Made by a program: the position numbers and the translations under genes
Notes under the pieces: generated by a model
The model's input: the letters and a program-made list of their open reading frames with translations, nothing else
What the model was told of the DNA's origin: nothing
The model's database searches: none
In this document: positions 1,342 to 54,188 of the stretch, piece by piece
Layout of the letters: each line of letters opens with the position of its first letter
Numbering within the stretch: position 1 is the first letter of the stretch
Assembly (NCBI GenBank): GCA_964610305.1
Contig: CAZSVL010000005.1
Span: 14,815 to 78,814 of the forward strand
Length of the DNA: 64,000 nt
Reading direction: 5' to 3'
From: an uncultured Gammaproteobacteria bacterium
GTDB taxonomy: Bacteria > Patescibacteriota > Patescibacteriia > Magasanikbacterales > JBBTXJ01

Positions 1342-1363
1342 GTATTTCATCTTGTCATTCTGA

Positions 1364-1419
1364 ATGAAGTGAAGAATCTAATACGTTCGTAGGGGATCCT
1401 TCGCTTCGCTCAGGATGAC
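1364..1419. repeat. degenerate palindromic element of the GTCAT...ATGAC family, between the sigma and anti-sigma genes
   Basis: Starts GTCATTCTGAA and ends CTCAGGATGAC. Same end motifs as the inverted repeats flanking the GIY-YIG genes. Confidence 0.4.
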
Positions 1420-1435
1420 GGCAAGAAATTAAATC

Positions 1436-2580: not shown

Positions 2581-2656
2581 AACCGCCACTTTTCTGTGAG
2601 ATCCCGGATAAATTGCTGCGCAATTTTCCGGGATGACATGGAAGGGCGGTTTTTTG
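2581..2656 (+). terminator. long hairpin plus T-run, putative intrinsic terminator; contains an internal ATCCCGGA...TCCGGGATGAC palindrome
   Basis: CCGCC at 2583-2587 pairs with GGGCGG at 2644-2649 and is followed by TTTTTT. The internal palindrome belongs to the same repeat family. Confidence 0.4.
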
Positions 2657-2667
2657 GTTTAAGATAT

Positions 2668-3019
2668 GTCATTCTGAACTTGATTCAGAATCTCACAGAA
2701 GTATGTCAGGATATAAATCTCTCCACTCCCTATTGTCTCTAGAAATCAAGTCTTCTTTCCAGGGACGTTTCCAGGCTTTCAGTTGCTTTTCTCGTGTGAT
2801 GGCTGACTCCGCATTTTCGTGAATGTCGTAATACACTAGTTTGTTTACGTTGTATTGCTTAGTAAAGCTTTCCTTGGCTCCCTCTCTGTGTTGCCACATT
2901 CTCTTTTTCAAATTACTCGTTACCCCAATGTACAAAACCGTATTGGTCTGATTGGATAAGATGTAGACGTAGTACTGTTTGTGCATTGCTGTTAGATCCT
3001 GAATCAAGTTCAGGATGAC
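2668..3019 (-). mobile_element. GIY-YIG gene cassette bounded by 25-bp terminal inverted repeats (putative small mobile element)
   Basis: Left end GTCATTCTGAACTTGATTCAGAATC (2668-2692). Right end GATCCTGAATCAAGTTCAGGATGAC (2995-3019), whose reverse complement is GTCATCCTGAACTTGATTCAGGATC. Each end is itself an internal palindrome. Confidence 0.5.
2693..2986 (-). CDS. GIY-YIG nuclease family protein (about 98 aa)
   Basis: YVYILSNQTNTVLYIGVTSNLKKRMWQHREG is a GIY-YIG/URI motif. ATG at 2986 is the likely start. The ORF-track extension to 3007 uses a TTG inside the inverted repeat. Confidence 0.75.
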   Translation of the reverse strand: MHKQYYVYILSNQTNTVLYIGVTSNLKKRMWQHREGAKESFTKQYNVNKLVYYDIHENAESAITREKQLKAWKRPWKEDLISRDNREWRDLYPDILL

Positions 3020-3080
3020 GAAGGGGTGTTCAGGATGACGAAGGGGTGTTCAGGATGACGAAGGGGTGTTCAGGATGACG
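3011..3080. repeat. tandem repeat, 20-bp unit CAGGATGACGAAGGGGTGTT x 3.5
   Basis: Perfect copies are read directly. The unit begins with the outer end of the right inverted repeat (TTCAGGATGACG) and sits between the GIY-YIG start and the trpS stop. Confidence 0.85.
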
Positions 3081-3081
3081 T

Positions 3082-4119
3082 CTACAAACCAATTTTTTTC
3101 CTGGCTTTTATCATGCTCTTCTCTGCAATAAAATGAGCCTTTCTGTTTGCCAGCTTTGAGAGTACGTCTCTTTTCAGCAGACCTGCACGTTTTTTTCTGA
3201 AGTTGCCAAAGTAATCTGAAATTGAGCGTGCTGTTGTTTGTTTGAGGTCTTTGTAAGAGATGGATTGGCCAGTAAAGCGCATGTTGTCTTTTTCTGAGCC
3301 AAAGTATTCTAGTAGTTTCAGCAGGTTGTACGCTCCAGCTACTCCTTCATTTTTTCCGGCTCCTGGTTTGAGAATCCATTCCCCTTTCCATGCTACAGGG
3401 ATTTTTCCGGTGCTCTCTGTTTTGGCTTTCTTAATTTTTTCTGCAATTGTTTTTGGAGAGTCGCTTAGATTGATGACGTTTTTTTCGCCATGAGATTTAC
3501 TCATTTTTTTATGAGGAGCGGTAAGGCTCATAACACGTGGGGTAGGGGTAAGGATGGGTCTGGCCTCTGGAAAGGTCTTTCCGTATCTATTGTTAAACCA
3601 GCGCGCAATTTTTCTAGTGAGCTCTACGTGTTGTACTTGGTCTTCTCCAACAGGCACGTGCGTCCCGCCGTAGAGTAGAATATCGGCCGCCTGCAAAACA
3701 GGGTAACTAAAGAGTCCATTATTAATATTATTTTTTTGATCTAATGACTTATCTTTAAATTGAGTCATCCGTGAGAGCTCTGCAATGGGCGTAACGCAAT
3801 TAAACATCCAGCCCAGCTCTGTGTGTTGAGGCACGGCCGATTGCAAAAAGAAAACAGACTTGCGATTGTTAATGCCAAGAGCAAAAAGCTCTGCTGCCAT
3901 CATTTTTACATTTTTTTTGAGCTCCTTGCTTTCAGGCGCTTGCGTCAGCACGTGCAAATCAGCAATAAAAAAGAAGCACTCGTTTTTTGGATCATCTTGC
4001 AATTGCTTCCAGTAGCGCAGCGCACCTAAATAATTTCCGATGTGAAGCGGTCCGCTTGGCTGAATGCCAGATACAATAGTGTGTTTCATAGTAGTCTTAT
4101 TGTAATCCCATATAGACAT
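3082..4119 (-). CDS. trpS: tryptophan--tRNA ligase
   Basis: Class I HIGH motif (PSGPLHIGNYLGA) and KMSKS (HKKMSKSHG). Overall TrpRS-like layout. True start may be the internal MKHTIVSG. Confidence 0.85.
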   Translation of the reverse strand: MSIWDYNKTTMKHTIVSGIQPSGPLHIGNYLGALRYWKQLQDDPKNECFFFIADLHVLTQAPESKELKKNVKMMAAELFALGINNRKSVFFLQSAVPQHTELGWMFNCVTPIAELSRMTQFKDKSLDQKNNINNGLFSYPVLQAADILLYGGTHVPVGEDQVQHVELTRKIARWFNNRYGKTFPEARPILTPTPRVMSLTAPHKKMSKSHGEKNVINLSDSPKTIAEKIKKAKTESTGKIPVAWKGEWILKPGAGKNEGVAGAYNLLKLLEYFGSEKDNMRFTGQSISYKDLKQTTARSISDYFGNFRKKRAGLLKRDVLSKLANRKAHFIAEKSMIKARKKIGL

Positions 4120-5306: not shown

Positions 5307-5652
5307 GTCATCCCGGACTTGATCCGGGATCCAGGGAATACGGATATAAGTCTCTCCATTGAGGATTATGCTCTTCTATCAGATCAAGCTTCCATTTGCG
5401 TTTCCAATTTTTGAGCTGTTTTTCACGCGCAATAGCTTGGCTAGCAGATTTATATTCCTCAAAATGAACCAATTTTGATACATTGTATTCTTTTGTAAAT
5501 CCTTCTGCTTCTTTCTTTTTGTGTTGCCATGTTCGTTTGAGTACGTCGTTGCTTACACCGATGTAAATCGTACCATTTCTTTTACTAGCTAATATGTAGA
5601 CGTAGTACGATTTTGCCATATACACTGGATCCTGAATCAAGTTCAGGATGAC
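5307..5652 (-). mobile_element. second GIY-YIG cassette bounded by 25-bp terminal inverted repeats
   Basis: Left end GTCATCCCGGACTTGATCCGGGATC (5307-5331). Right end GATCCTGAATCAAGTTCAGGATGAC (5628-5652), identical to the right end of the first cassette. Confidence 0.5.
5308..5619 (-). CDS. GIY-YIG nuclease family protein (about 103 aa)
   Basis: YVYILASKRNGTIYIGVSNDVLKRTWQHKKK motif. ATG at 5619 is the likely start (track start at 5640 is again a TTG in the repeat). The C-terminal LDPGSSPG residues and the stop codon are encoded by the left inverted repeat. Confidence 0.75.
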   Translation of the reverse strand: MAKSYYVYILASKRNGTIYIGVSNDVLKRTWQHKKKEAEGFTKEYNVSKLVHFEEYKSASQAIAREKQLKNWKRKWKLDLIEEHNPQWRDLYPYSLDPGSSPG

Positions 5653-7485: not shown

Positions 7486-7627
7486 ATTTGTTGCGCGATA
7501 AAATCGCGAAAGATATAAAGAAAGTTAAAGTTATTGATTATTAATTTTTAGACACCCACTAGTTTAGTTGGTGTTTTGTGTCGGGATCCTACCGCCTGCT
7601 ACGCGGCTCCAGGATGACGCTTGCGCG

Positions 7628-9899: not shown

Positions 9900-9986
9900 G
9901 TCATCCGCAGCTTGATTCAGGATCCAGGTAGGAATATAAGACGTACTCTATTTCTGCCCTAGATTCTGAATCAAGTTCAGAATGAC
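9900..9986. mobile_element. miniature gene-less derivative of the GIY-YIG inverted-repeat element (two repeats about 37 bp apart)
   Basis: GTCATCCGCAGCTTGATTCAGGATC (9900-9924) and GATTCTGAATCAAGTTCAGAATGAC (9962-9986). The internal GGAATATAAGACGTACTC resembles the GGATATAAGTCTCTCC that follows the repeats in the gene-carrying copies. Confidence 0.5.
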
Positions 9987-20813: not shown

Positions 20814-21080
20814 ATGGCTTGCGTCTACATTTTAAGATCAGAAAGTGGAAGGTATTATGTGGGCAGTGCGATTGATGTTGATTCTCGTTTGAGACACCAT
20901 AAGGGCGGATTTACTCATTCAACTGCTCGCATGGGTAAGTTGGAGGTTGTGTTAGTGCAGCAGTATGAGACTCTGAAAGAAGCACGTTTCGTTGAAAGAA
21001 GGATAAAGAGAATGAAAAGGAAAGATTACATTGATAAGATGGTGGCCGACGGAAAAATCAAAATTAAGATGCGTGAGTAG
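20814..21080 (+). CDS. GIY-YIG nuclease family protein (about 88 aa), whose stop codon overlaps the tRNA 5' end
   Basis: VYILRSESGRYYVGSAIDVDSRLRHHKGG is a GIY-YIG motif. Track start at 20742 overlaps the pseudouridine synthase gene; ATG 20814 preferred. Final codons ATG CGT GAG TAG are the first 10 nt of the tRNA. Confidence 0.65.
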   Translation: MACVYILRSESGRYYVGSAIDVDSRLRHHKGGFTHSTARMGKLEVVLVQQYETLKEARFVERRIKRMKRKDYIDKMVADGKIKIKMRE

Positions 21081-21143
21081 CTCAACCGGCAGAGCGCGAA
21101 GCTTATACCTTCGTGGTTCCAGGTTCAAGTCCTGGCTCACGCA
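21071..21143 (+). tRNA. tRNA, anticodon UAU (Ile, AUA-decoding), 73 nt, no encoded CCA
   Basis: Manual cloverleaf: 7-bp acceptor stem GCGTGAG/CTCACGC, D-stem GCTC/GAGC, anticodon stem CGAAG/CTTCG with loop C-U-UAU-A-C, T-arm CCAGG-TTCAAGT-CCTGG, and 5-nt variable loop. All stems are Watson-Crick. Confidence 0.7.
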
Positions 21144-21195
21144 CGAGTAGCCCCGACGCCCGAAGGGGTCGGGGGGCCGACTGAAACGTCGGCCC

Positions 21196-21258
21196 TCAAC
21201 CGGCAGAGCGCGAAGCTTATACCTTCGTGGTTCCAGGTTCAAGTCCTGGCTCACGCAC
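21196..21258 (+). repeat. 63-bp perfect direct repeat of the tRNA 3' portion (D-loop to discriminator); partial pseudo-tRNA
   Basis: Identical to 21081-21143. It lacks the 5' acceptor strand and a D-stem partner. The 52-bp spacer holds two small GC hairpins. Confidence 0.8.
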
Positions 21259-37116: not shown

Positions 37117-38955
37117 ATGGCAGAGCATTGGTATGGTGTAGCGCAGGACATCGCAGATTGCAAACGCTTGCAAAGGTGGGGTAGAAAAAAGAAATTGACT
37201 ATTATTACCTGTTCGCTTGAAGCGCGCCTTTTTTTGGAGGACAGCGGGACGGAAACTATCTATGTATGGGATATATTTGATATGGAGCAGCTGATTGATC
37301 AGGCTTTTTTTAAGGCAAAAGAAATGACGTTGGAAGATGCCTTTGGTGATGTGCTCTATAAAAAAGCAGCAATTCACCGCATGCATGTGGAATTTTTAAG
37401 TCACGCTGTTGCTTCAAAGATGCTTGCTGATAAAATTGTTGCCTACGTTCAAGAGCGCGCTGGCAGCGTGGTGATCGCCAAAATCTCACACATATTTTTT
37501 GGTCCATATTTTCCGTTGGCTCAGAGAAAAATGCAGCGCAACCCACTATTGCTTGAGTTTATTGTAGAAGTCTCTAATAGAGAGGGTGTAAAAAATGTGC
37601 GCCAGGGAGTGGATATGTTTTTTGCCTCTTTGTGGGCTCCGGTTGTATACCGATATGCCATATCAAAGCAGATCATCTCTGATGCTATGTCTTTGCTGTG
37701 GGGGGCTGCCAGCAAAATAAAGACAATTGACGATTTGCTTGCTTCTCATTCGCAGGTTCATATTCTCAGTATTGGATGGGGAAGGGATTTACATAGGATG
37801 CTTTCTTTGTCAGAGTTGCATCAGGAGCTTGAGGCGTCAGGTAAAAGAGCTGTTCATGTTTTGTGGCGCCCAAAAAAATTATCGGATAAGGATCAGTCAG
37901 TCGGCCCAACATTACGTATTAGAGAACAGATTAAAAAGGGGGTTACGTATGGACCATCCATTTCAATGTTGGGTTTAAAGAGGTGGCGCACGTTGTTTGC
38001 GTTTTATAGATCAGCCGCGCATTATAAAGCGTTTAGCCCAACCTTAGAAAAGCTGAGTAGCTCATCGGTGTACCGATTAAATATTTTGTATAACGCCTTT
38101 TTTTCTTATCGTGAAACATTTTTGACATCATTGATAACTGCAAAAATAATAAAAAAAGTAAGACCAAAAGTCATGTTGGGTTCAGATAGTGGTGGGGAGA
38201 GTGCGCGATCTGAGATGATAGTAGCTCAATCGGCTGGCATAAGGACTGTTAGTACGCCTCATGGGTATCAGGCTTACGCCATGGAGAGTTATAATTATTT
38301 GGCTGATAAGGTTCTCACCTACGGAACAGCTACGGCCGGTATTTTAAAGCACTGTGGTGTTCAGGAAGAGAGAATTTCTGTAGTGGGGTCTAGTCACAAG
38401 CGTTCAGGAAAAAACTCTCTAGGGTCTCCCATTAAAGTGGTCATAGGAACACGAAGTTGGGGAGGGCTGTGGTCTAACTACAGCAGTGTTCATCCAAAGT
38501 TAGATAAGAATTTTAGGGAATTGCTTCATGCGCTTAAGAAAGATGATCGGTTTGAAGTCACCATAAAATCTCATCCCAACGGAGATTTGCACGGATATTA
38601 TGATCTATTAGTTGATCGTATGGGAAGCGACAGAATAAGACATATTGCGGCTGGTTGGAGAGCGGAGGTTTTTGAGCAGAAGTGCGATATTTTAATTTGT
38701 ATGGGAGATTGTCCAAGTCTCTATGTCTCAGCGCTCTACTTAAACAAACCTATAATATTTGTTGAGGGTTGTATGAGTATGACACAGAAAAAAATGGGAT
38801 ACGTGTACGATGGTTGTGCTTCAGTTGTTAGCGATGGCGGGCAGGCATATCTGGCTTGCCTTGCAGATTTAGCAAATGATGCAGAATTTAAAGACGCATT
38901 TGGGATCGTGCAAAATACTGGCAAGAGCGTGTCCAAAATATTAACGACATTTTAA
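37117..38955 (+). CDS. large hypothetical protein (612 aa), paralog of N-terminal 600 aa of the protein at 39752..42553; candidate glycosyltransferase by context
   Basis: Collinear similarity with the 933-aa protein: TPHGYQAYAMESYNYLADKVL vs IPHGYKAYAVRPYDYLARFVL; GTRSWGGLWSN vs ATRSWGGMWSN; KSHPNGDLHGYYDLLV vs KSHPNGDYHEYYDLIV; MGDCPSLYVSAL vs LGDCPSFFVTAL. No family assigned. Confidence 0.5.
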   Translation: MAEHWYGVAQDIADCKRLQRWGRKKKLTIITCSLEARLFLEDSGTETIYVWDIFDMEQLIDQAFFKAKEMTLEDAFGDVLYKKAAIHRMHVEFLSHAVASKMLADKIVAYVQERAGSVVIAKISHIFFGPYFPLAQRKMQRNPLLLEFIVEVSNREGVKNVRQGVDMFFASLWAPVVYRYAISKQIISDAMSLLWGAASKIKTIDDLLASHSQVHILSIGWGRDLHRMLSLSELHQELEASGKRAVHVLWRPKKLSDKDQSVGPTLRIREQIKKGVTYGPSISMLGLKRWRTLFAFYRSAAHYKAFSPTLEKLSSSSVYRLNILYNAFFSYRETFLTSLITAKIIKKVRPKVMLGSDSGGESARSEMIVAQSAGIRTVSTPHGYQAYAMESYNYLADKVLTYGTATAGILKHCGVQEERISVVGSSHKRSGKNSLGSPIKVVIGTRSWGGLWSNYSSVHPKLDKNFRELLHALKKDDRFEVTIKSHPNGDLHGYYDLLVDRMGSDRIRHIAAGWRAEVFEQKCDILICMGDCPSLYVSALYLNKPIIFVEGCMSMTQKKMGYVYDGCASVVSDGGQAYLACLADLANDAEFKDAFGIVQNTGKSVSKILTTF

Positions 38956-39761: not shown

Positions 39762-42553
39762 TTTTTCAGGGCTGTATGAAATACGGTTTTATAACGGAAA
39801 CAATTGAGGATTGTAAGCAGGTTCTAAAATGGTCAGCGTCTGTTGGCAAGGCTGAGATTGTTGTGATTGCTTTGTCTTTGGAATCTTTTGAATATTTTAA
39901 GCGCAACAGTTCTTTAAAGATTTCATGTTTGCATATCTGGGACATAGCAGACATGGAAACTATTATTGATGAGGCGTTTGTTGATGCCGAGCAGTCATTT
40001 AAAGAATGGATGAATCTTTTTTCTGACCGTGAAGATTCTCTATTTGATGTTGCCGTTCAGCACCGTTTTCATATTGAGTTCTTAAACCACGCACATGTTT
40101 GCTTGAGTGTGGCAACTCTAATGGCTACCTATTTTAAAGAGAGCGGGTTAACGTATGTGGTGTCTGCCGTGCATCCGGTTTTTGCTGGCCCCTTTTTTCC
40201 TAATCATCACAAGAATATAAGACGCAGTTTTCTTTTTAAGTCCATTTCTTATGAGATTTTTGTAAGAAAGAATGTTTCCTGCCGTTTTATTGATAAGAGA
40301 TCTTGGTTTGTACTCAAGGCTATTCCCGCTCTGCTTTGGTTTCGTGTGATAAGTAGATTGCTAAGAGATGGGGCTATATTTGTCGTTGATAGGTTGCGCA
40401 AGCGCCCAACACTTGAGCGCATGTTTGCTGCGGGACCCAAGCATGCCGATGTTGTTTGGTCTGGGTGGGGTAATGATTTGTCTGTCTATTTCTTGCCTTC
40501 AGAAGTTCATAGGCTTTCTGTTGAAAGTGGGTACACATCGGTACATATGGTAAGCAGGCCACAAAAGCTGAAGGAGCACAATGCTAACTTTGTTAAGGAG
40601 CATGACAATCTTTTTTTTCATACGCCCGATGAGATTCACAAAGCAGTTTCACATGGTCCTCGGATATCGCTTTTTCCTCTGTCAACGTTGAAGCGGTATG
40701 TAGGATCATTTTTACGATCCACCATTCCTCACCGATTTCGCGCTTTAAAAAATCCTAGCGGCATGCCTTCTTTTAAAGCACTTCTTGCGCTAAAAGGATT
40801 TAGGTGCGCCATGGCATTTAATGTTTTTATTGCTTATAGAGAAGCCTTCTTTTCAAAAGAGCTAAGTCTGGCAATAGCTAAGCGTTTTAATCCTGCTTTT
40901 TTTGTGGGGACCGATAGCGCTAACGTTGCCTGCCGGGCAGAGCTTGCTGTTATGAATGCTCGGGGAGTAACCACTCTTAGCATACCTCACGGCTATAAGG
41001 CCTATGCGGTGCGACCTTATGATTATTTGGCTCGTTTTGTTTTGGCGCCTGGTAGTATGAGTAAATCTCTTGCGGTTTCTGTCGGCGTGCCTGAGGAAGA
41101 TGCAAAGATTGTTGGGTGTCGAGAAATAGGGAGAAAGAAAATTTATGACGCAACTAAACAAAAAGTAAAAGTTGTTATAGCAACGAGGAGTTGGGGAGGT
41201 ATGTGGTCTAATATGGGAGTTGTTCAGAAAGAGTACGATATTCAGCTGCGATCTCTAATTGAAGGTTTGTCAAAAAAGGCATCTTATGAGACCGTAGTAA
41301 AATCGCATCCAAACGGTGATTATCATGAGTACTATGATCTTATTGTCTCTGGGCTTGGTAGTCCATCGGTAAAACATGTTAGTAAGGGGTGGAAGAGGGA
41401 TTATTTTTTGGATCAGTGTGATGTTGCCGTATTTTTGGGGGATTGTCCCAGCTTCTTTGTGACCGCTCTTATGAGCGGGATACCGTGCGTTTTTATAAAG
41501 GGGACCATGAGCAAGTCTCAAAAGAGAATGAATTATTCTTTTGATAGATGCGCTTATGTGGTTGATGATGTTCAGCAAGCCTTAGAAGCTATAGATAGTC
41601 TTGCCTCTGGCACTGAGTTTGCACACGTGGCTTTGGATAAGCAGAACTCACGCGTTGATGAGCTCAGGGGTGCGCAAGCTCCAGAGGAGGTCGCAATGCA
41701 ATTAATTTCAAAATTTTCTATGCCTATCTCAAATGAGAGGAGCCAAAAAACAGATATAGCTCTTTTGCTTGTTGCAACCATTAACATAGGAAACAAGGCG
41801 CTACTAAAGCGCAATAATACCAAAGAGCGTTTGCTGGATTATGAGCAGTCATTGCGTTTGTGGTTGAAACAAAAAAGCATCAGTAAGATTGTTTTTGTAG
41901 ATAATTCAGCATACAGTCTTGATAGTTTAAAAAAGGTTGCGGCAGAGCATAATACGCTTGGCAAAGAGGTTGAATTTCTCTCTTTTAATTTTGTTTCTCC
42001 AACTGATTCAAATATTGCATTGGGCGAACTGGTGTCTATTGATCACGCGCTGGAGAATTCAAAGCTATTGAGTACTTGCGACTCTTTTGTTAAGATGACT
42101 GGCCGGGTATTCGTTCGTAATATTGATGCTATTGTGAAGGATTTAGATGCAGGCTTTCACATGGTCTCCCGGCTTTCTGAGAATTTAACGTATGTAGATA
42201 GCGCTTCTGTTATCTTCAATAAAAAGTTTTATCTTGAAATGGTTTCTGGTTTCTGCAAAGATGAACTTAAGAGAGTGATTGAGCGAGGAGAGAGGACTGA
42301 TATTGAAAGGTTGTTTGCAAAAGCCTTGCATAGAGGTGTTGCGCTAGACTACCGGTGGTTCCCCTATTCTCATGAGCCGGTTTTGCAAGGCATGTCTGGA
42401 ACAAAAAATATTTCATATGCAAAAAGACACAATGCCTACAGAGCACTAAAGATGCATGTTTTTGGGAGAATGTTTTATAGGCTTACCAGAACATCTTGGG
42501 GGGAGAGTTCTGGCCGCAGACATTTAATGGATAGGTGGGGGATAGAAAAATAG
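39752..42553 (+). CDS. very large hypothetical protein (933 aa): N-terminal region paralogous to 37117..38955 plus C-terminal domain paralogous to 29074..29991; candidate nonulosonate/glycan transferase by context
   Basis: Paralogy blocks as listed for the two partner genes. No recognisable catalytic signature. Confidence 0.5.
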   Translation: MQVIFQGCMKYGFITETIEDCKQVLKWSASVGKAEIVVIALSLESFEYFKRNSSLKISCLHIWDIADMETIIDEAFVDAEQSFKEWMNLFSDREDSLFDVAVQHRFHIEFLNHAHVCLSVATLMATYFKESGLTYVVSAVHPVFAGPFFPNHHKNIRRSFLFKSISYEIFVRKNVSCRFIDKRSWFVLKAIPALLWFRVISRLLRDGAIFVVDRLRKRPTLERMFAAGPKHADVVWSGWGNDLSVYFLPSEVHRLSVESGYTSVHMVSRPQKLKEHNANFVKEHDNLFFHTPDEIHKAVSHGPRISLFPLSTLKRYVGSFLRSTIPHRFRALKNPSGMPSFKALLALKGFRCAMAFNVFIAYREAFFSKELSLAIAKRFNPAFFVGTDSANVACRAELAVMNARGVTTLSIPHGYKAYAVRPYDYLARFVLAPGSMSKSLAVSVGVPEEDAKIVGCREIGRKKIYDATKQKVKVVIATRSWGGMWSNMGVVQKEYDIQLRSLIEGLSKKASYETVVKSHPNGDYHEYYDLIVSGLGSPSVKHVSKGWKRDYFLDQCDVAVFLGDCPSFFVTALMSGIPCVFIKGTMSKSQKRMNYSFDRCAYVVDDVQQALEAIDSLASGTEFAHVALDKQNSRVDELRGAQAPEEVAMQLISKFSMPISNERSQKTDIALLLVATINIGNKALLKRNNTKERLLDYEQSLRLWLKQKSISKIVFVDNSAYSLDSLKKVAAEHNTLGKEVEFLSFNFVSPTDSNIALGELVSIDHALENSKLLSTCDSFVKMTGRVFVRNIDAIVKDLDAGFHMVSRLSENLTYVDSASVIFNKKFYLEMVSGFCKDELKRVIERGERTDIERLFAKALHRGVALDYRWFPYSHEPVLQGMSGTKNISYAKRHNAYRALKMHVFGRMFYRLTRTSWGESSGRRHLMDRWGIEK

Positions 42554-50751: not shown

Positions 50752-50783
50752 CTGTGGCAACAAAAATTACTTATTATCACGCC

Positions 50784-50834
50784 GTCATCGCGAGGAAGCC
50801 TGCCCCGGACTTGATCCGGGGTGGCGATCCCGCC
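50784..50834. repeat. palindromic element GTCATCGCGAG...CCCCGGACTTGATCCGGGG...GCGATCCCGCC plus T-run (same family as the GIY-YIG inverted repeats)
   Basis: Contains the CCGGACTTGATCCGG palindrome seen at 5311-5327. Its ends match the in-gene copy at 53609-53647. Confidence 0.4.
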
Positions 50835-50881
50835 TTTTTTGACGAGATTGCTTCGCCTGCAGCTCGCAATGACCAAAAAAT

Positions 50882-53271: not shown

Positions 53272-53454
53272 ATGAAAAAACATACACTACATACGCTTGC
53301 CGGCTTTACGTTTTTAGTAGCTGCCGCACTTCATTTATCACGGTTTGTGACAAAAGCAGATTTAGCGTATGGCAGCTACGTTATTCCACTGTGGTTTTCT
53401 GTTGTGGTAGGACTCTGGGCGGCCTTTCTAAGTTACAAGAGCTTTAAAAGTTAA
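53272..53454 (+). CDS. hypothetical small membrane protein (60 aa)
   Basis: Two hydrophobic segments. May be spurious. Confidence 0.25.
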   Translation: MKKHTLHTLAGFTFLVAAALHLSRFVTKADLAYGSYVIPLWFSVVVGLWAAFLSYKSFKS

Positions 53455-54188
53455 TGAGAATAAATAAGTTCTTAACACAAGCAAATTATTGTTCACGCCG
53501 TGAGGCGGACCGTTTGATTGAAAAAGGTTTAATCAAAATCAATGACACGGTCGCTCAGCTTGGACAGCAAGTGCAAACGGGCGACCGTGTTTTTGTTGTT
53601 ACCCACCCGTCATCCCGAGCGAGCAAAGCGAGTCGAGGGATCCCGCCAAATTGGACAGAAGTAACTTTAGGCACTGAAGAGAAAATATATCTGGCTTATC
53701 ACAAGCCAGTGGGTGTTATTTGCGCCACTGACACAACCAAACCAGACAACATTATTGACGCCATAAATTATACAGAGCGTGTCTATCCTGTTGGTCGGCT
53801 TGACGTTGCCAGCTCTGGTTTAATACTGCTTACCAATGATGGAGATATTGTTAACAAAATTCTCAAAGGTAAGCAAAAGATAGAGAAAGAGTATGTGGTA
53901 GACGTTGATAAGATTGTAACTGAAAAAAAATTGGGAAAATTAAAAAAAGGTATTGTATTGGACTGGCATAAAACACTGCCTGCAAAAATAAAAAGGACAG
54001 GTACAAAACGTTTTTCAATAACTATAGTAGAGGGAAGAAACAGGCAAATCAGACGCATGTGTGAAGCGGTTGGATGGAAGGTGGTTCGGCTTCATAGGGT
54101 GCGTATTGGTTCGTTGTGTCTTGGAAGTTTAAGGGTGGGAGAATATAGAGAGTTAGAGAGTCCTCCTCTTGACAATAATGGCCAATAA
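53454..54188 (+). CDS. rRNA pseudouridine synthase, RsuA/RluB family (S4 domain plus PseudoU_synth_2), carrying an in-frame palindromic-element insertion
   Basis: S4 domain at N-terminus. YHKPVGVICA (KPxG) and the catalytic Asp in GRLDVASSGLILLTNDG. Confidence 0.75.
   Translation: MRINKFLTQANYCSRREADRLIEKGLIKINDTVAQLGQQVQTGDRVFVVTHPSSRASKASRGIPPNWTEVTLGTEEKIYLAYHKPVGVICATDTTKPDNIIDAINYTERVYPVGRLDVASSGLILLTNDGDIVNKILKGKQKIEKEYVVDVDKIVTEKKLGKLKKGIVLDWHKTLPAKIKRTGTKRFSITIVEGRNRQIRRMCEAVGWKVVRLHRVRIGSLCLGSLRVGEYRELESPPLDNNGQ
53609..53647 (+). repeat. palindromic GTCATCCCGAG...GGGATCCCGCC element inserted in-frame in the pseudouridine synthase linker (encodes HPSSRASKASRGIPP)
   Basis: Same end motifs as the intergenic copy at 50784-50834 and the GTCATCC/GGATC ends of the GIY-YIG inverted repeats. 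Lies between the S4 domain and the catalytic domain. Confidence 0.45.

Follow-up and report, generated by a model that had tools for sequence, protein, structure and literature searches.

A CGTC-tagged repeat inside an RluF-like pseudouridine synthase gene and its probable relation to a repeat family spread with GIY-YIG genes

How a short repeat comes to be read in frame within a housekeeping gene, and where it came from, is the question raised by a 64-kb stretch of the contig CAZSVL010000005.1 (hereafter the window), in which an rRNA pseudouridine synthase gene carries between its two domains a segment similar to intergenic repeats of the same stretch. An earlier note on this DNA had described the segment as a 39-bp palindromic element like those known from Rickettsia. 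It is likely a solo copy of a CGTC-tagged repetitive palindromic element (REP), of the class of the Ssn-related motifs (SRMs), that was inserted in an RluF-like gene, in the beta-turn closing the S4 domain, and belongs to a family spread with GIY-YIG genes.

The insert in the host gene

The features of the locus are as follows.

53454..54188, plus strand: host gene, an RsuA/RluB/RluF-family rRNA pseudouridine synthase of 244 aa (open reading frame; Pfam, NCBIfam and PDB matches)
53604..53654, plus strand: the entire insert as measured against insert-free orthologues, 51 nt, 17 aa, codons 51-67, HPSSRASKASRGIPPNW (homologue alignment)
53608-53642, plus strand: repeat copy CGTCATCCCGAGCGAGCAAAGCGAGTCGAGGGATC inside the S4 + PseudoU_synth_2 (RluF-like) gene, with a core of 34 nt (sequence)
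53608..53611, plus strand: unpaired 5' CGTC tag (sequence; tag as defined in PMC3733652)
53612..53619, plus strand: 5' arm ATCCCGAG, whose first pairs are A-T and T-A, a family trait (sequence)
53620..53633, plus strand: interior CGAGCAAAGCGAGT of 14 nt, that of the 34-nt subtype, with the consensus ...GAGCGAGC-RNA-GCGAGTCGAG... in nucleotide codes (subtype copies)
53634..53642, plus strand: 3' arm CGAGGGAT and the conserved C after the stem (sequence)
53643..53647, plus strand: tail CCGCC, common to the intergenic copy at 50783-50834 (sequence comparison)

The host protein has RluF as its best NCBIfam match (201 bits, under the equivalog cut-off) and matches E. coli RluF (PDB 3DH3) with E=3.7e-51; its homologues come from Patescibacteria. 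It combines an N-terminal S4 domain (residues 1-46), a PseudoU_synth_2 domain (residues 79-205) and a catalytic Asp in GRLD, the combination that marks the RsuA/RluB/RluE/RluF enzymes. Since the catalytic motif (G114 R115 L116 D117, ending in the catalytic Asp) is invariant in the homologue alignment, the gene, which keeps both domains, is apparently intact and functional. The 39-mer quoted in the earlier note occurs once in the window (53609-53647, plus strand, exact match), is read as HPSSRASKASRGIPP as the note stated, keeps the reading frame and lies, as had been claimed, between the S4 and the catalytic domains.

A search of 5.8 billion proteins gave 120 best homologues, of which 117 lack the segment; residues occur at this place only in the query and in the proteins P0003 and P0004. 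Compared with insert-free orthologues the insert measures 17 aa (51 nt), and the earlier figure of 13-15 aa has to be corrected. In the carriers it sits between VFV(V/G)(T/G) and (T/K)EV, while in the insert-free homologues the flanks rejoin cleanly in the pattern VFVxG followed directly by KEV (consensus V.VDG followed directly by KEI). One of these, P0002, is 77-78% identical to the window protein and reads VFVGG followed directly by KEV; against E. coli RluF (3DH3), the extra residues correspond to a gap after VKVNG. The alignment with orthologues, which had been proposed as a check, supports insertion, and, judged from it, the segment in the gene is a real insertion, an event of a type already known for such repeats.

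Modelling of the site, proposed at the same time, points to a surface loop. In an AlphaFold2 model of the host protein from 27 sequences (mean pLDDT 74.8, pTM 0.54), residues 50-66 form a coil between beta-strands 46-49 and 67-70, with a block pLDDT of 63 at the insert against 86-92 in the S4 core, so that the insert is predicted to be a loop where the S4 hairpin ends, at the protein surface. Three characters of the Rickettsia palindromic elements (RPEs) are found together here: an in-frame position in a conserved gene, absence from orthologues and a predicted surface position.

The in-gene element is a CGTC-tagged REP, of the same class as the SRMs. The superfamily was defined by a CGTC or TGTC tag, stems of 8-9 bp opening with AT, loops of 4-5 nt and a short tail, with a CCTC variant of the tag and other loop lengths in some species (PMC3733652). 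The in-gene copy has the CGTC tag (53608-53611), a short unpaired 3' tail (C followed by CCGCC) and, within the 64 kb, about 13 relatives.

The repeat family and its nuclease genes

The relatives found in the window carry a YGTC tag, a stem opening with A-T and T-A pairs, a short loop and, next to the stem, a C to which CC is often added; about 13 were counted against 2.7 expected for a loose scan. For the strict pattern CGTCATC-N(15-45)-GATCCC there are four occurrences, where shuffled sequence would give 0.02. The termini of the in-gene copy are also those of the intergenic copy at 50783-50831, as the earlier note had seen, the two having in common CCGTCATC and a 9-nt tail GATCCCGCC; the nucleotide match to the repeat family goes far beyond chance. 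Canonical window copies, for example CGTCATCCTGAACTTGATTCAGGATC, have perfect 8-bp stems and fold significantly, with z about -3. The relatives and the genes beside them are listed below.

1354..1378, plus strand: degenerate relative GTCATTCTGAATGAAGTGAAGAATC, intergenic
1393..1420, minus strand: closest relative in the window, CGTCATCCTGAGCGAAGCGAAGGATCCC, with the same GAGCGA arm type and a 5-nt loop, CGAAG
2600..2637, minus strand: relative with a long perfect stem, GTCATCCCGGAAAATTGCGCAGCAATTTATCCGGGATC, -19.3 kcal/mol
2668..2692, plus strand: repeat 3' of the first GIY-YIG gene
2693..3007, minus strand: first small single-domain GIY-YIG gene (ssn-like), with inverted repeat copies on both sides (open reading frame; Pfam GIY-YIG, E=5e-19)
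2995..3080, minus strand: repeat 5' of the first GIY-YIG gene (copy at 2995-3019), then 3.7 tandem 20-nt copies of the tag plus half-stem
5307..5331, plus strand: repeat flanking the second GIY-YIG gene
5308..5640, minus strand: second small GIY-YIG gene (ssn-like), with a listed TTG start and a likely ATG start at 5619 (open reading frame; Pfam GIY-YIG, E=6e-17)
5628..5652, minus strand: repeat 5' of the second GIY-YIG gene
7583..7619, minus strand: intergenic relative CGTCATCCTGGAGCCGCGTAGCAGGCGGTAGGATCCC
9900..9986, both strands: head-to-head pair of repeats 37 nt apart with no gene between (9900-9924, plus; 9962-9986, minus)
50783..50831, plus strand: composite intergenic relative upstream of ndk, with outer arms GTCATCGCGAGG...GGCGATC around the stem-loop CCCCGGACTTGATCCGGGG (z = -3.25)
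50846..50873, minus strand: intergenic relative GTCATTGCGAGCTGCAGGCGAAGCAATC, head-to-head with the copy at 50783-50831

Both GIY-YIG genes lie between inverted repeat copies and encode single-domain proteins of about 95 aa; the only PDB relative is the UPF0213 protein BH0048 (1ZG2, E=0.004). The resulting arrangements, 2668-2692/gene/2995-3019 and 5307-5331/gene/5628-5652, have the architecture of the SRM systems, in which NTS hairpin repeats flank ssnA (NTS-ssnA-NTS), a gene with a 94-aa GIY-YIG product (PMC11893778). All other window copies are intergenic apart from the one in the pseudouridine synthase gene, a solo copy that flanks no GIY-YIG gene.

Some of these repeats have peculiarities of their own. 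The stem-loop CCCCGGACTTGATCCGGGG inside 50783-50831 is that of the repeat type flanking the second GIY-YIG gene at 5307, which suggests that the composite copy is a hybrid or arose by the nesting of two repeats. Just 5' of the first GIY-YIG gene, the 20-nt unit GTTCAGGATGACGAAGGGGT is present in 3.7 copies with 100% identity (3008-3080); its minus strand consists of the CGTC tag and the 5' half-stem of the repeat, and the array looks like repeated partial copying of a half-site. The pair at 9900-9986 may represent either a REPIN-like doublet or what remains of a GIY-YIG cassette that was lost.

The subtype of the in-gene copy was sought in one genome per species with the pattern GTCATCCCGAGCGA-N(0-30)-TCGAGGGATC. 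At least 120 stretches contain it, and their hosts belong to at least 12 phyla, among them Verrucomicrobiota, Planctomycetota, Gemmatimonadota, Acidobacteriota, Bacillota and Bacteroidota, as well as Actinomycetota, Omnitrophota, Pseudomonadota, Chloroflexota, Armatimonadota and Patescibacteria. Among the matches listed there are 134 copies, 71 in a 26-nt form and 25 in a 34-nt form, and the base before GTC is T in 87 of the 134 and C in 31. Positions 15-24 of the 34-nt form, free in the search pattern, are yet almost invariant (GC-R-N-A-GCGAG). The exact 34-mer of the window occurs also in two unrelated metagenome-assembled genomes (MAGs), one of Terriglobales and one of Peptoniphilus. A Bacteroides and Bifidobacterium oedipodis each have an ssn-like gene between inverted copies of the subtype, and these genes are 49-53% identical to the first GIY-YIG protein of the window. 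A GIY-YIG gene stands beside the subtype in five of the 120 listed loci, within 100 nt of a copy in two of them, a count that supports the link and does not amount to a statistical test of association. On such sequence comparisons, the in-gene copy truly belongs to a system of repeat and nuclease found across bacteria.

The subtype also enters other genes. The 134 listed copies give 37 stop-free frames running at least 60 codons on either side of the element, and a Pfam check of nine such frames showed that eight are real genes carrying the subtype in frame, between Pfam domains in the first four genes below and within one Pfam match in the other four.

LigD: ligase domain on one side, primase-polymerase domain on the other
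MetH: separating the S-methyltransferase domain from the pterin-binding one
IleRS: ahead of the anticodon-binding domain
DnaE-type polymerase fragment: with the HHH domain and the OB domain on either side
UvrC: in the RNase H-like domain
D-amino-acid oxidase family (DAO): in the domain itself
PrmC: in the methyltransferase region
MFS transporter: about halfway along the single MFS_1 match

The earlier note had considered such insertions rare outside Rickettsia, which does not hold: besides these eight genes, intragenic CGTC REPs have been reported in many species, with a concentration in repair and replication, tRNA synthetase and pseudouridine synthase genes (PMC3733652). In-frame insertion is not rare for the CGTC REP/SRM family. 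Five of the six frames of the element are stop-free, and all five are seen in use among the intragenic copies.

A very long UvrA-like frame of a Chthoniobacterales MAG (L069) contains, at 3587-3632 and in its remaining part, about four segments that by eye seem to be derived from repeats (CHPERSGAKRNGVEGSRGA, RDPSTPPASAGSAQDD, VIPSGAEGAVEGSRR and RDPSAPLRFARDDE). If they are, one repair gene would have received several insertions.

The site in orthologous genes and the explanations weighed

DNA was compared for the three closest orthologues, L001, L002 (a 15-kb syntenic contig) and L003 (a Tara Oceans contig). The element is present at the window site in L002 and L003 and absent from L001. In the three carriers the inserts have 17, 19 and 24 aa and the frame is restored in each, while the interior between the eight-base arms, of 14 nt in the window copy, is longer in L002 (20 nt) and in L003 (16 nt). 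The 5' arm lies within a 16-nt run, CCGTCATCCCGAGCGA (window 53606-53621), and the 3' arm within a 14-nt run, AGTCGAGGGATCCC, both identical in all three; they are the longest and the joint second-longest runs of three-way identity in a gene that is 61% three-way identical, with pairwise nucleotide identities of 67-79%. Within the arms, every third codon position is conserved.

In L003 the tag is preceded by four additional bases, the interior is longer by two, and there are 21 extra bases upstream; its 5' arm is read as VIPSEAKR, whereas the window reads SSRASKA and L002 is in the frame of the window (SSRA); the frames rejoin at SRGIP. Because identical nucleotides are read in different frames, selection on the protein is ruled out as the cause of the conservation of the arms, which may instead be kept because the DNA itself is constrained or because other copies homogenise them.

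These data bear directly on the possibility that the segment is an ordinary lineage-specific expansion of a linker under protein selection, its likeness to the repeat being coincidental or secondary. The insert does lie at a domain boundary where linker lengths vary, and its 3' part (SRGIP) is in the same frame in all three orthologues. The frame-switched 5' arm, identical in nucleotides, already contradicts such an expansion, however, and the conserved third codon positions of the arms, the exact 34-mer in unrelated phyla, the excess of the strict pattern in the window and the lack of the segment in nearly all homologues speak against it too, so that this explanation is scarcely credible.

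It is also very improbable that the insert is not translated at all, being removed or bypassed at the RNA or the ribosome as in gene 60 of phage T4, or that the gene is a pseudogene. Nothing speaks directly for this, the nearest support being that GIY-YIG-linked elements accompany the gene 60 bypass element in phages (10.1101/2022.08.31.505936). Against it stand the absence of stop codons from the insert, three inserts of different length that are all in frame thanks to compensating indels, the intact catalytic motif and domains, and, at the in-gene site, no significant RNA structure and no Rfam match at either gathering thresholds or permissive E-values.

As to the number of insertions, the three inserts have in common (C/G)ACCC before the tag and P-x-x-W after the element, neither of which belongs to the family consensus from the 134 listed copies. 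This shared flanking sequence favours a single ancestral insertion. Metagenomes yielded no orthologue with more than 55% identity, so that the history of gain and loss rests on four sequences.

A number of observations weigh against the reading of the segment as a solo CGTC-tagged copy gained in this way. The earlier description of it as palindromic is true of the canonical copies of the family, whereas in the in-gene copy only ATCCC and GGGAT pair canonically, and nearest-neighbour folding gave no significant hairpin for it (z = +0.7 as DNA, -0.8 as RNA) and no better, again without significant structure, for either orthologous copy as DNA or RNA. Its 14-nt interior differs from the 4-5-nt loops typical of CGTC REPs. 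The published SRM pattern, HGTCWYN(0-2)YYVSBRHN(0-5)WNVSBRGN(0-2)RNCYNB, has no match in the window, the in-gene copy included. No ssn-like gene flanked by the subtype of the in-gene copy is present in the 64 kb. A direct repeat flanking the insert, as a target-site duplication would leave, was found neither in the window nor in L002; L003 has only an imperfect 7-nt pair (CGTGGTT/CGCGGTT), which overlaps codons that belong to the insert in L002 and is not counted as such a duplication. To our knowledge, transposition of elements of this kind has never been demonstrated. Finally, a neighbour-joining tree groups the insert-free P0002 with the window protein and P0003 and leaves P0004 outside (99.5% bootstrap). 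Because P0002 nests within the insert-bearing clade, a single gain needs a clean loss or the replacement by an insert-free allele.

By reading, the copy at 5307 fails the SRM pattern only at the first base, and the others appear to fail through AT-richer stems or longer loops; the pattern is unusable as a membership filter here because it is too strict for such stems and loops. The arms ATCCCGAG and CGAGGGAT (53612-53619 and 53634-53641) face each other as A-T, T-A, three C-G, G.A, A.G and G-C, the run of five canonical pairs being ATCCC/GGGAT, and with non-canonical G.A/A.G pairs the stem may have eight positions. The 34-nt consensus could extend it further, by one bulged T, a second tandem G.A and a GNA-type triloop closed by G-C and C-G, and this proposed extension resembles the stable DNA mini-hairpin d(GCGAAGC). 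A mismatched hairpin of this sort would fit an element acting as single-stranded DNA.

The position of P0002 also speaks for independent insertion, at least twice, at one codon boundary, in the ancestor of the window gene and L002 and in the lineage of L003; the site would then be a hotspot and P0002 would never have had the element. The 21 extra upstream bases, the other frame of the 5' arm and the different interior of L003 are in agreement with this, identical arms would follow naturally from recent separate insertions, and a precedent exists in the recB gene of two Xanthomonas species, which carries different REPs at about the same site (PMC3733652). On the other hand, the flanking (C/G)ACCC and P-x-x-W are shared by all three inserts, while the flanks of the 134 listed copies elsewhere show no such conservation, a 4-nt and a 2-nt indel account for the difference in frame, and the number of events equals that of one gain and one loss. 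Double insertion is unlikely.

According to the favoured reading, a solo CGTC-tagged copy would have landed at the beta-turn that ends the S4 domain, most likely in a single event that preceded the divergence of a small Patescibacteria-like clade. With five of its six frames open and a surface loop as its site, it would have been tolerated as a passenger, and would now be translated as a coil of 17 residues. The insert-free orthologue may have lost the element or regained an insert-free allele. The family itself is dispersed in the genome together with the small GIY-YIG genes flanked by inverted copies, and its association with them suggests that the nuclease spreads or maintains the copies. 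A further proposal is that intragenic copies are kept at the DNA level, for example as Ssn sites on single-stranded DNA in replication or transformation, and are cleanly removable. Two observations would fit it, namely arms that are still identical, though read in different frames, in orthologues with about 70% identity, and an insert-free gene nested in the clade, but we regard it as improbable. If it were true, in-frame linker copies would be maintained and reversible, and might mark boundaries of intragenic recombination.

The insertion itself changes little, as in-frame copies of the superfamily are already known. Worth further work are the frame-switched identical copies and the nested insert-free orthologue; nucleotide-identical orthologous copies in switched frames offer a natural test between selected DNA sites and homogenised junk.

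Several further observations concern the orthologous contigs and the rest of the window. L002 is syntenic with the window at 49-63 kb (ndk, DNA alkylation repair, DUF1761, pseudouridine synthase, HhH-GPD and ABC transporter genes); its in-gene copy is the sole copy of the element in 14.4 kb, which has no counterpart of the intergenic copies near ndk in the window. The insert-free orthologue in L001 (294-986) has an in-frame TGA where its relatives have Cys (TGC to TGA), given as W in the stored protein; as coverage of the contig is 2.9x, the codon may reflect an error of assembly, a pseudogene or an altered genetic code. Elsewhere in the window, a tRNA-Ile gene (anticodon TAT, 21071-21144) is accompanied by a 64-nt stretch (21195-21258) identical to its 3' part, at a reported separation of 114 nt, which receives only 30.5 bits from Rfam and no ARAGORN call. 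Two diverged direct repeats 2.7 kb apart (38240-38477 and 40968-41211; 71-82% identity over 44-65 nt) are probably neighbouring paralogous genes.

Comparison with known systems

The family agrees with the CGTC REPs in the CGTC/TGTC tag, the A-T/T-A start of the stem, the C-rich tail, head-to-head dimers, and a mostly intergenic distribution with a minority of copies inside genes, here including LigD, UvrC, the DnaE-type polymerase and IleRS. It differs in that the in-gene copy has a 14-nt interior and a stem needing G.A mismatches, that the host is Patescibacteria-like, outside the five phyla listed in 2013, and that the subtype peptides VIPSE.., DPSTS.. and HPERS.. are absent from the supplementary list of that survey (Di Nocera, De Gregorio & Rocco 2013, BMC Genomics 14:522; PMC3733652). 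No dedicated enzyme was found there, whereas GIY-YIG genes flanked by the repeats are present here.

With the SRM and NTS repeats and their Ssn nucleases of CDD family cd10448 (Chenal et al. 2025, Nat Commun 16:2388; PMC11893778) the family shares the repeat-gene-repeat layout, a single-domain GIY-YIG protein of about 95 aa and a wide spread over phyla. The Neisseria repeat CGTCATTCCCGCG...GCGGGAATC and the window repeat CGTCATCCCGAG...CGAGGGATC have the same layout, conserved bases being the three that precede the stem and the C that follows it; in Neisseria, this C is the base most critical for binding by SsnA, a nuclease that recognises the hairpin in single-stranded DNA only and cleaves the strand a few bases upstream of it (PMC11893778). 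The published degenerate pattern misses the window copies. The authors, Chenal et al., only raise an analogy with IS200/IS605 and REP/RAYT, and copies inside coding sequences do not seem to be treated in their paper (PMC11893778).

Two other kinds of element were considered and set aside. A miniature inverted-repeat transposable element, which would have terminal inverted repeats matching an IS element and a target-site duplication, was rejected in view of the missing duplication in the window and L002 and the lack of an associated IS-type transposase. The GTAG-tagged REPs and REPINs with their REP-associated tyrosine transposase (RAYT) are similar in having short hairpin repeats inverted around a small single-copy enzyme gene, along with solo and doublet copies (Nunvar 2010; Bertels & Rainey 2011), but this assignment was rejected as well, the tag being CGTC, not GTAG, and the enzyme a GIY-YIG nuclease, not an HUH tyrosine transposase.

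The RPEs are similar in behaviour, as in-frame repeated palindromic elements of housekeeping genes that are tolerated in surface loops and kept at orthologous sites across species. Such elements within coding genes of Rickettsia are said to have been described by Ogata et al. in Science in 2000. RPE-1 has about 100-150 bp and is confined to Rickettsia. The element described here has a core of 34 nt, an unrelated host, and an identical subtype across many phyla together with a nuclease gene. RPE-4 and RPE-6, like the Neisseria dRS3, were nevertheless placed in the CGTC superfamily, for which no dedicated transposase was known at the time (PMC3733652), so that the name RPE-like, chosen in the earlier note, goes beyond analogy and is a matter of a shared superfamily, although the link is indirect. 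The locus joins three subjects, the coding palindromes of the Rickettsia type, the CGTC REPs, for which a dedicated enzyme was said to be missing, and the Ssn GIY-YIG nucleases, and it extends the repeat-nuclease family to a small Patescibacteria-like genome and to a subtype with a long interior.

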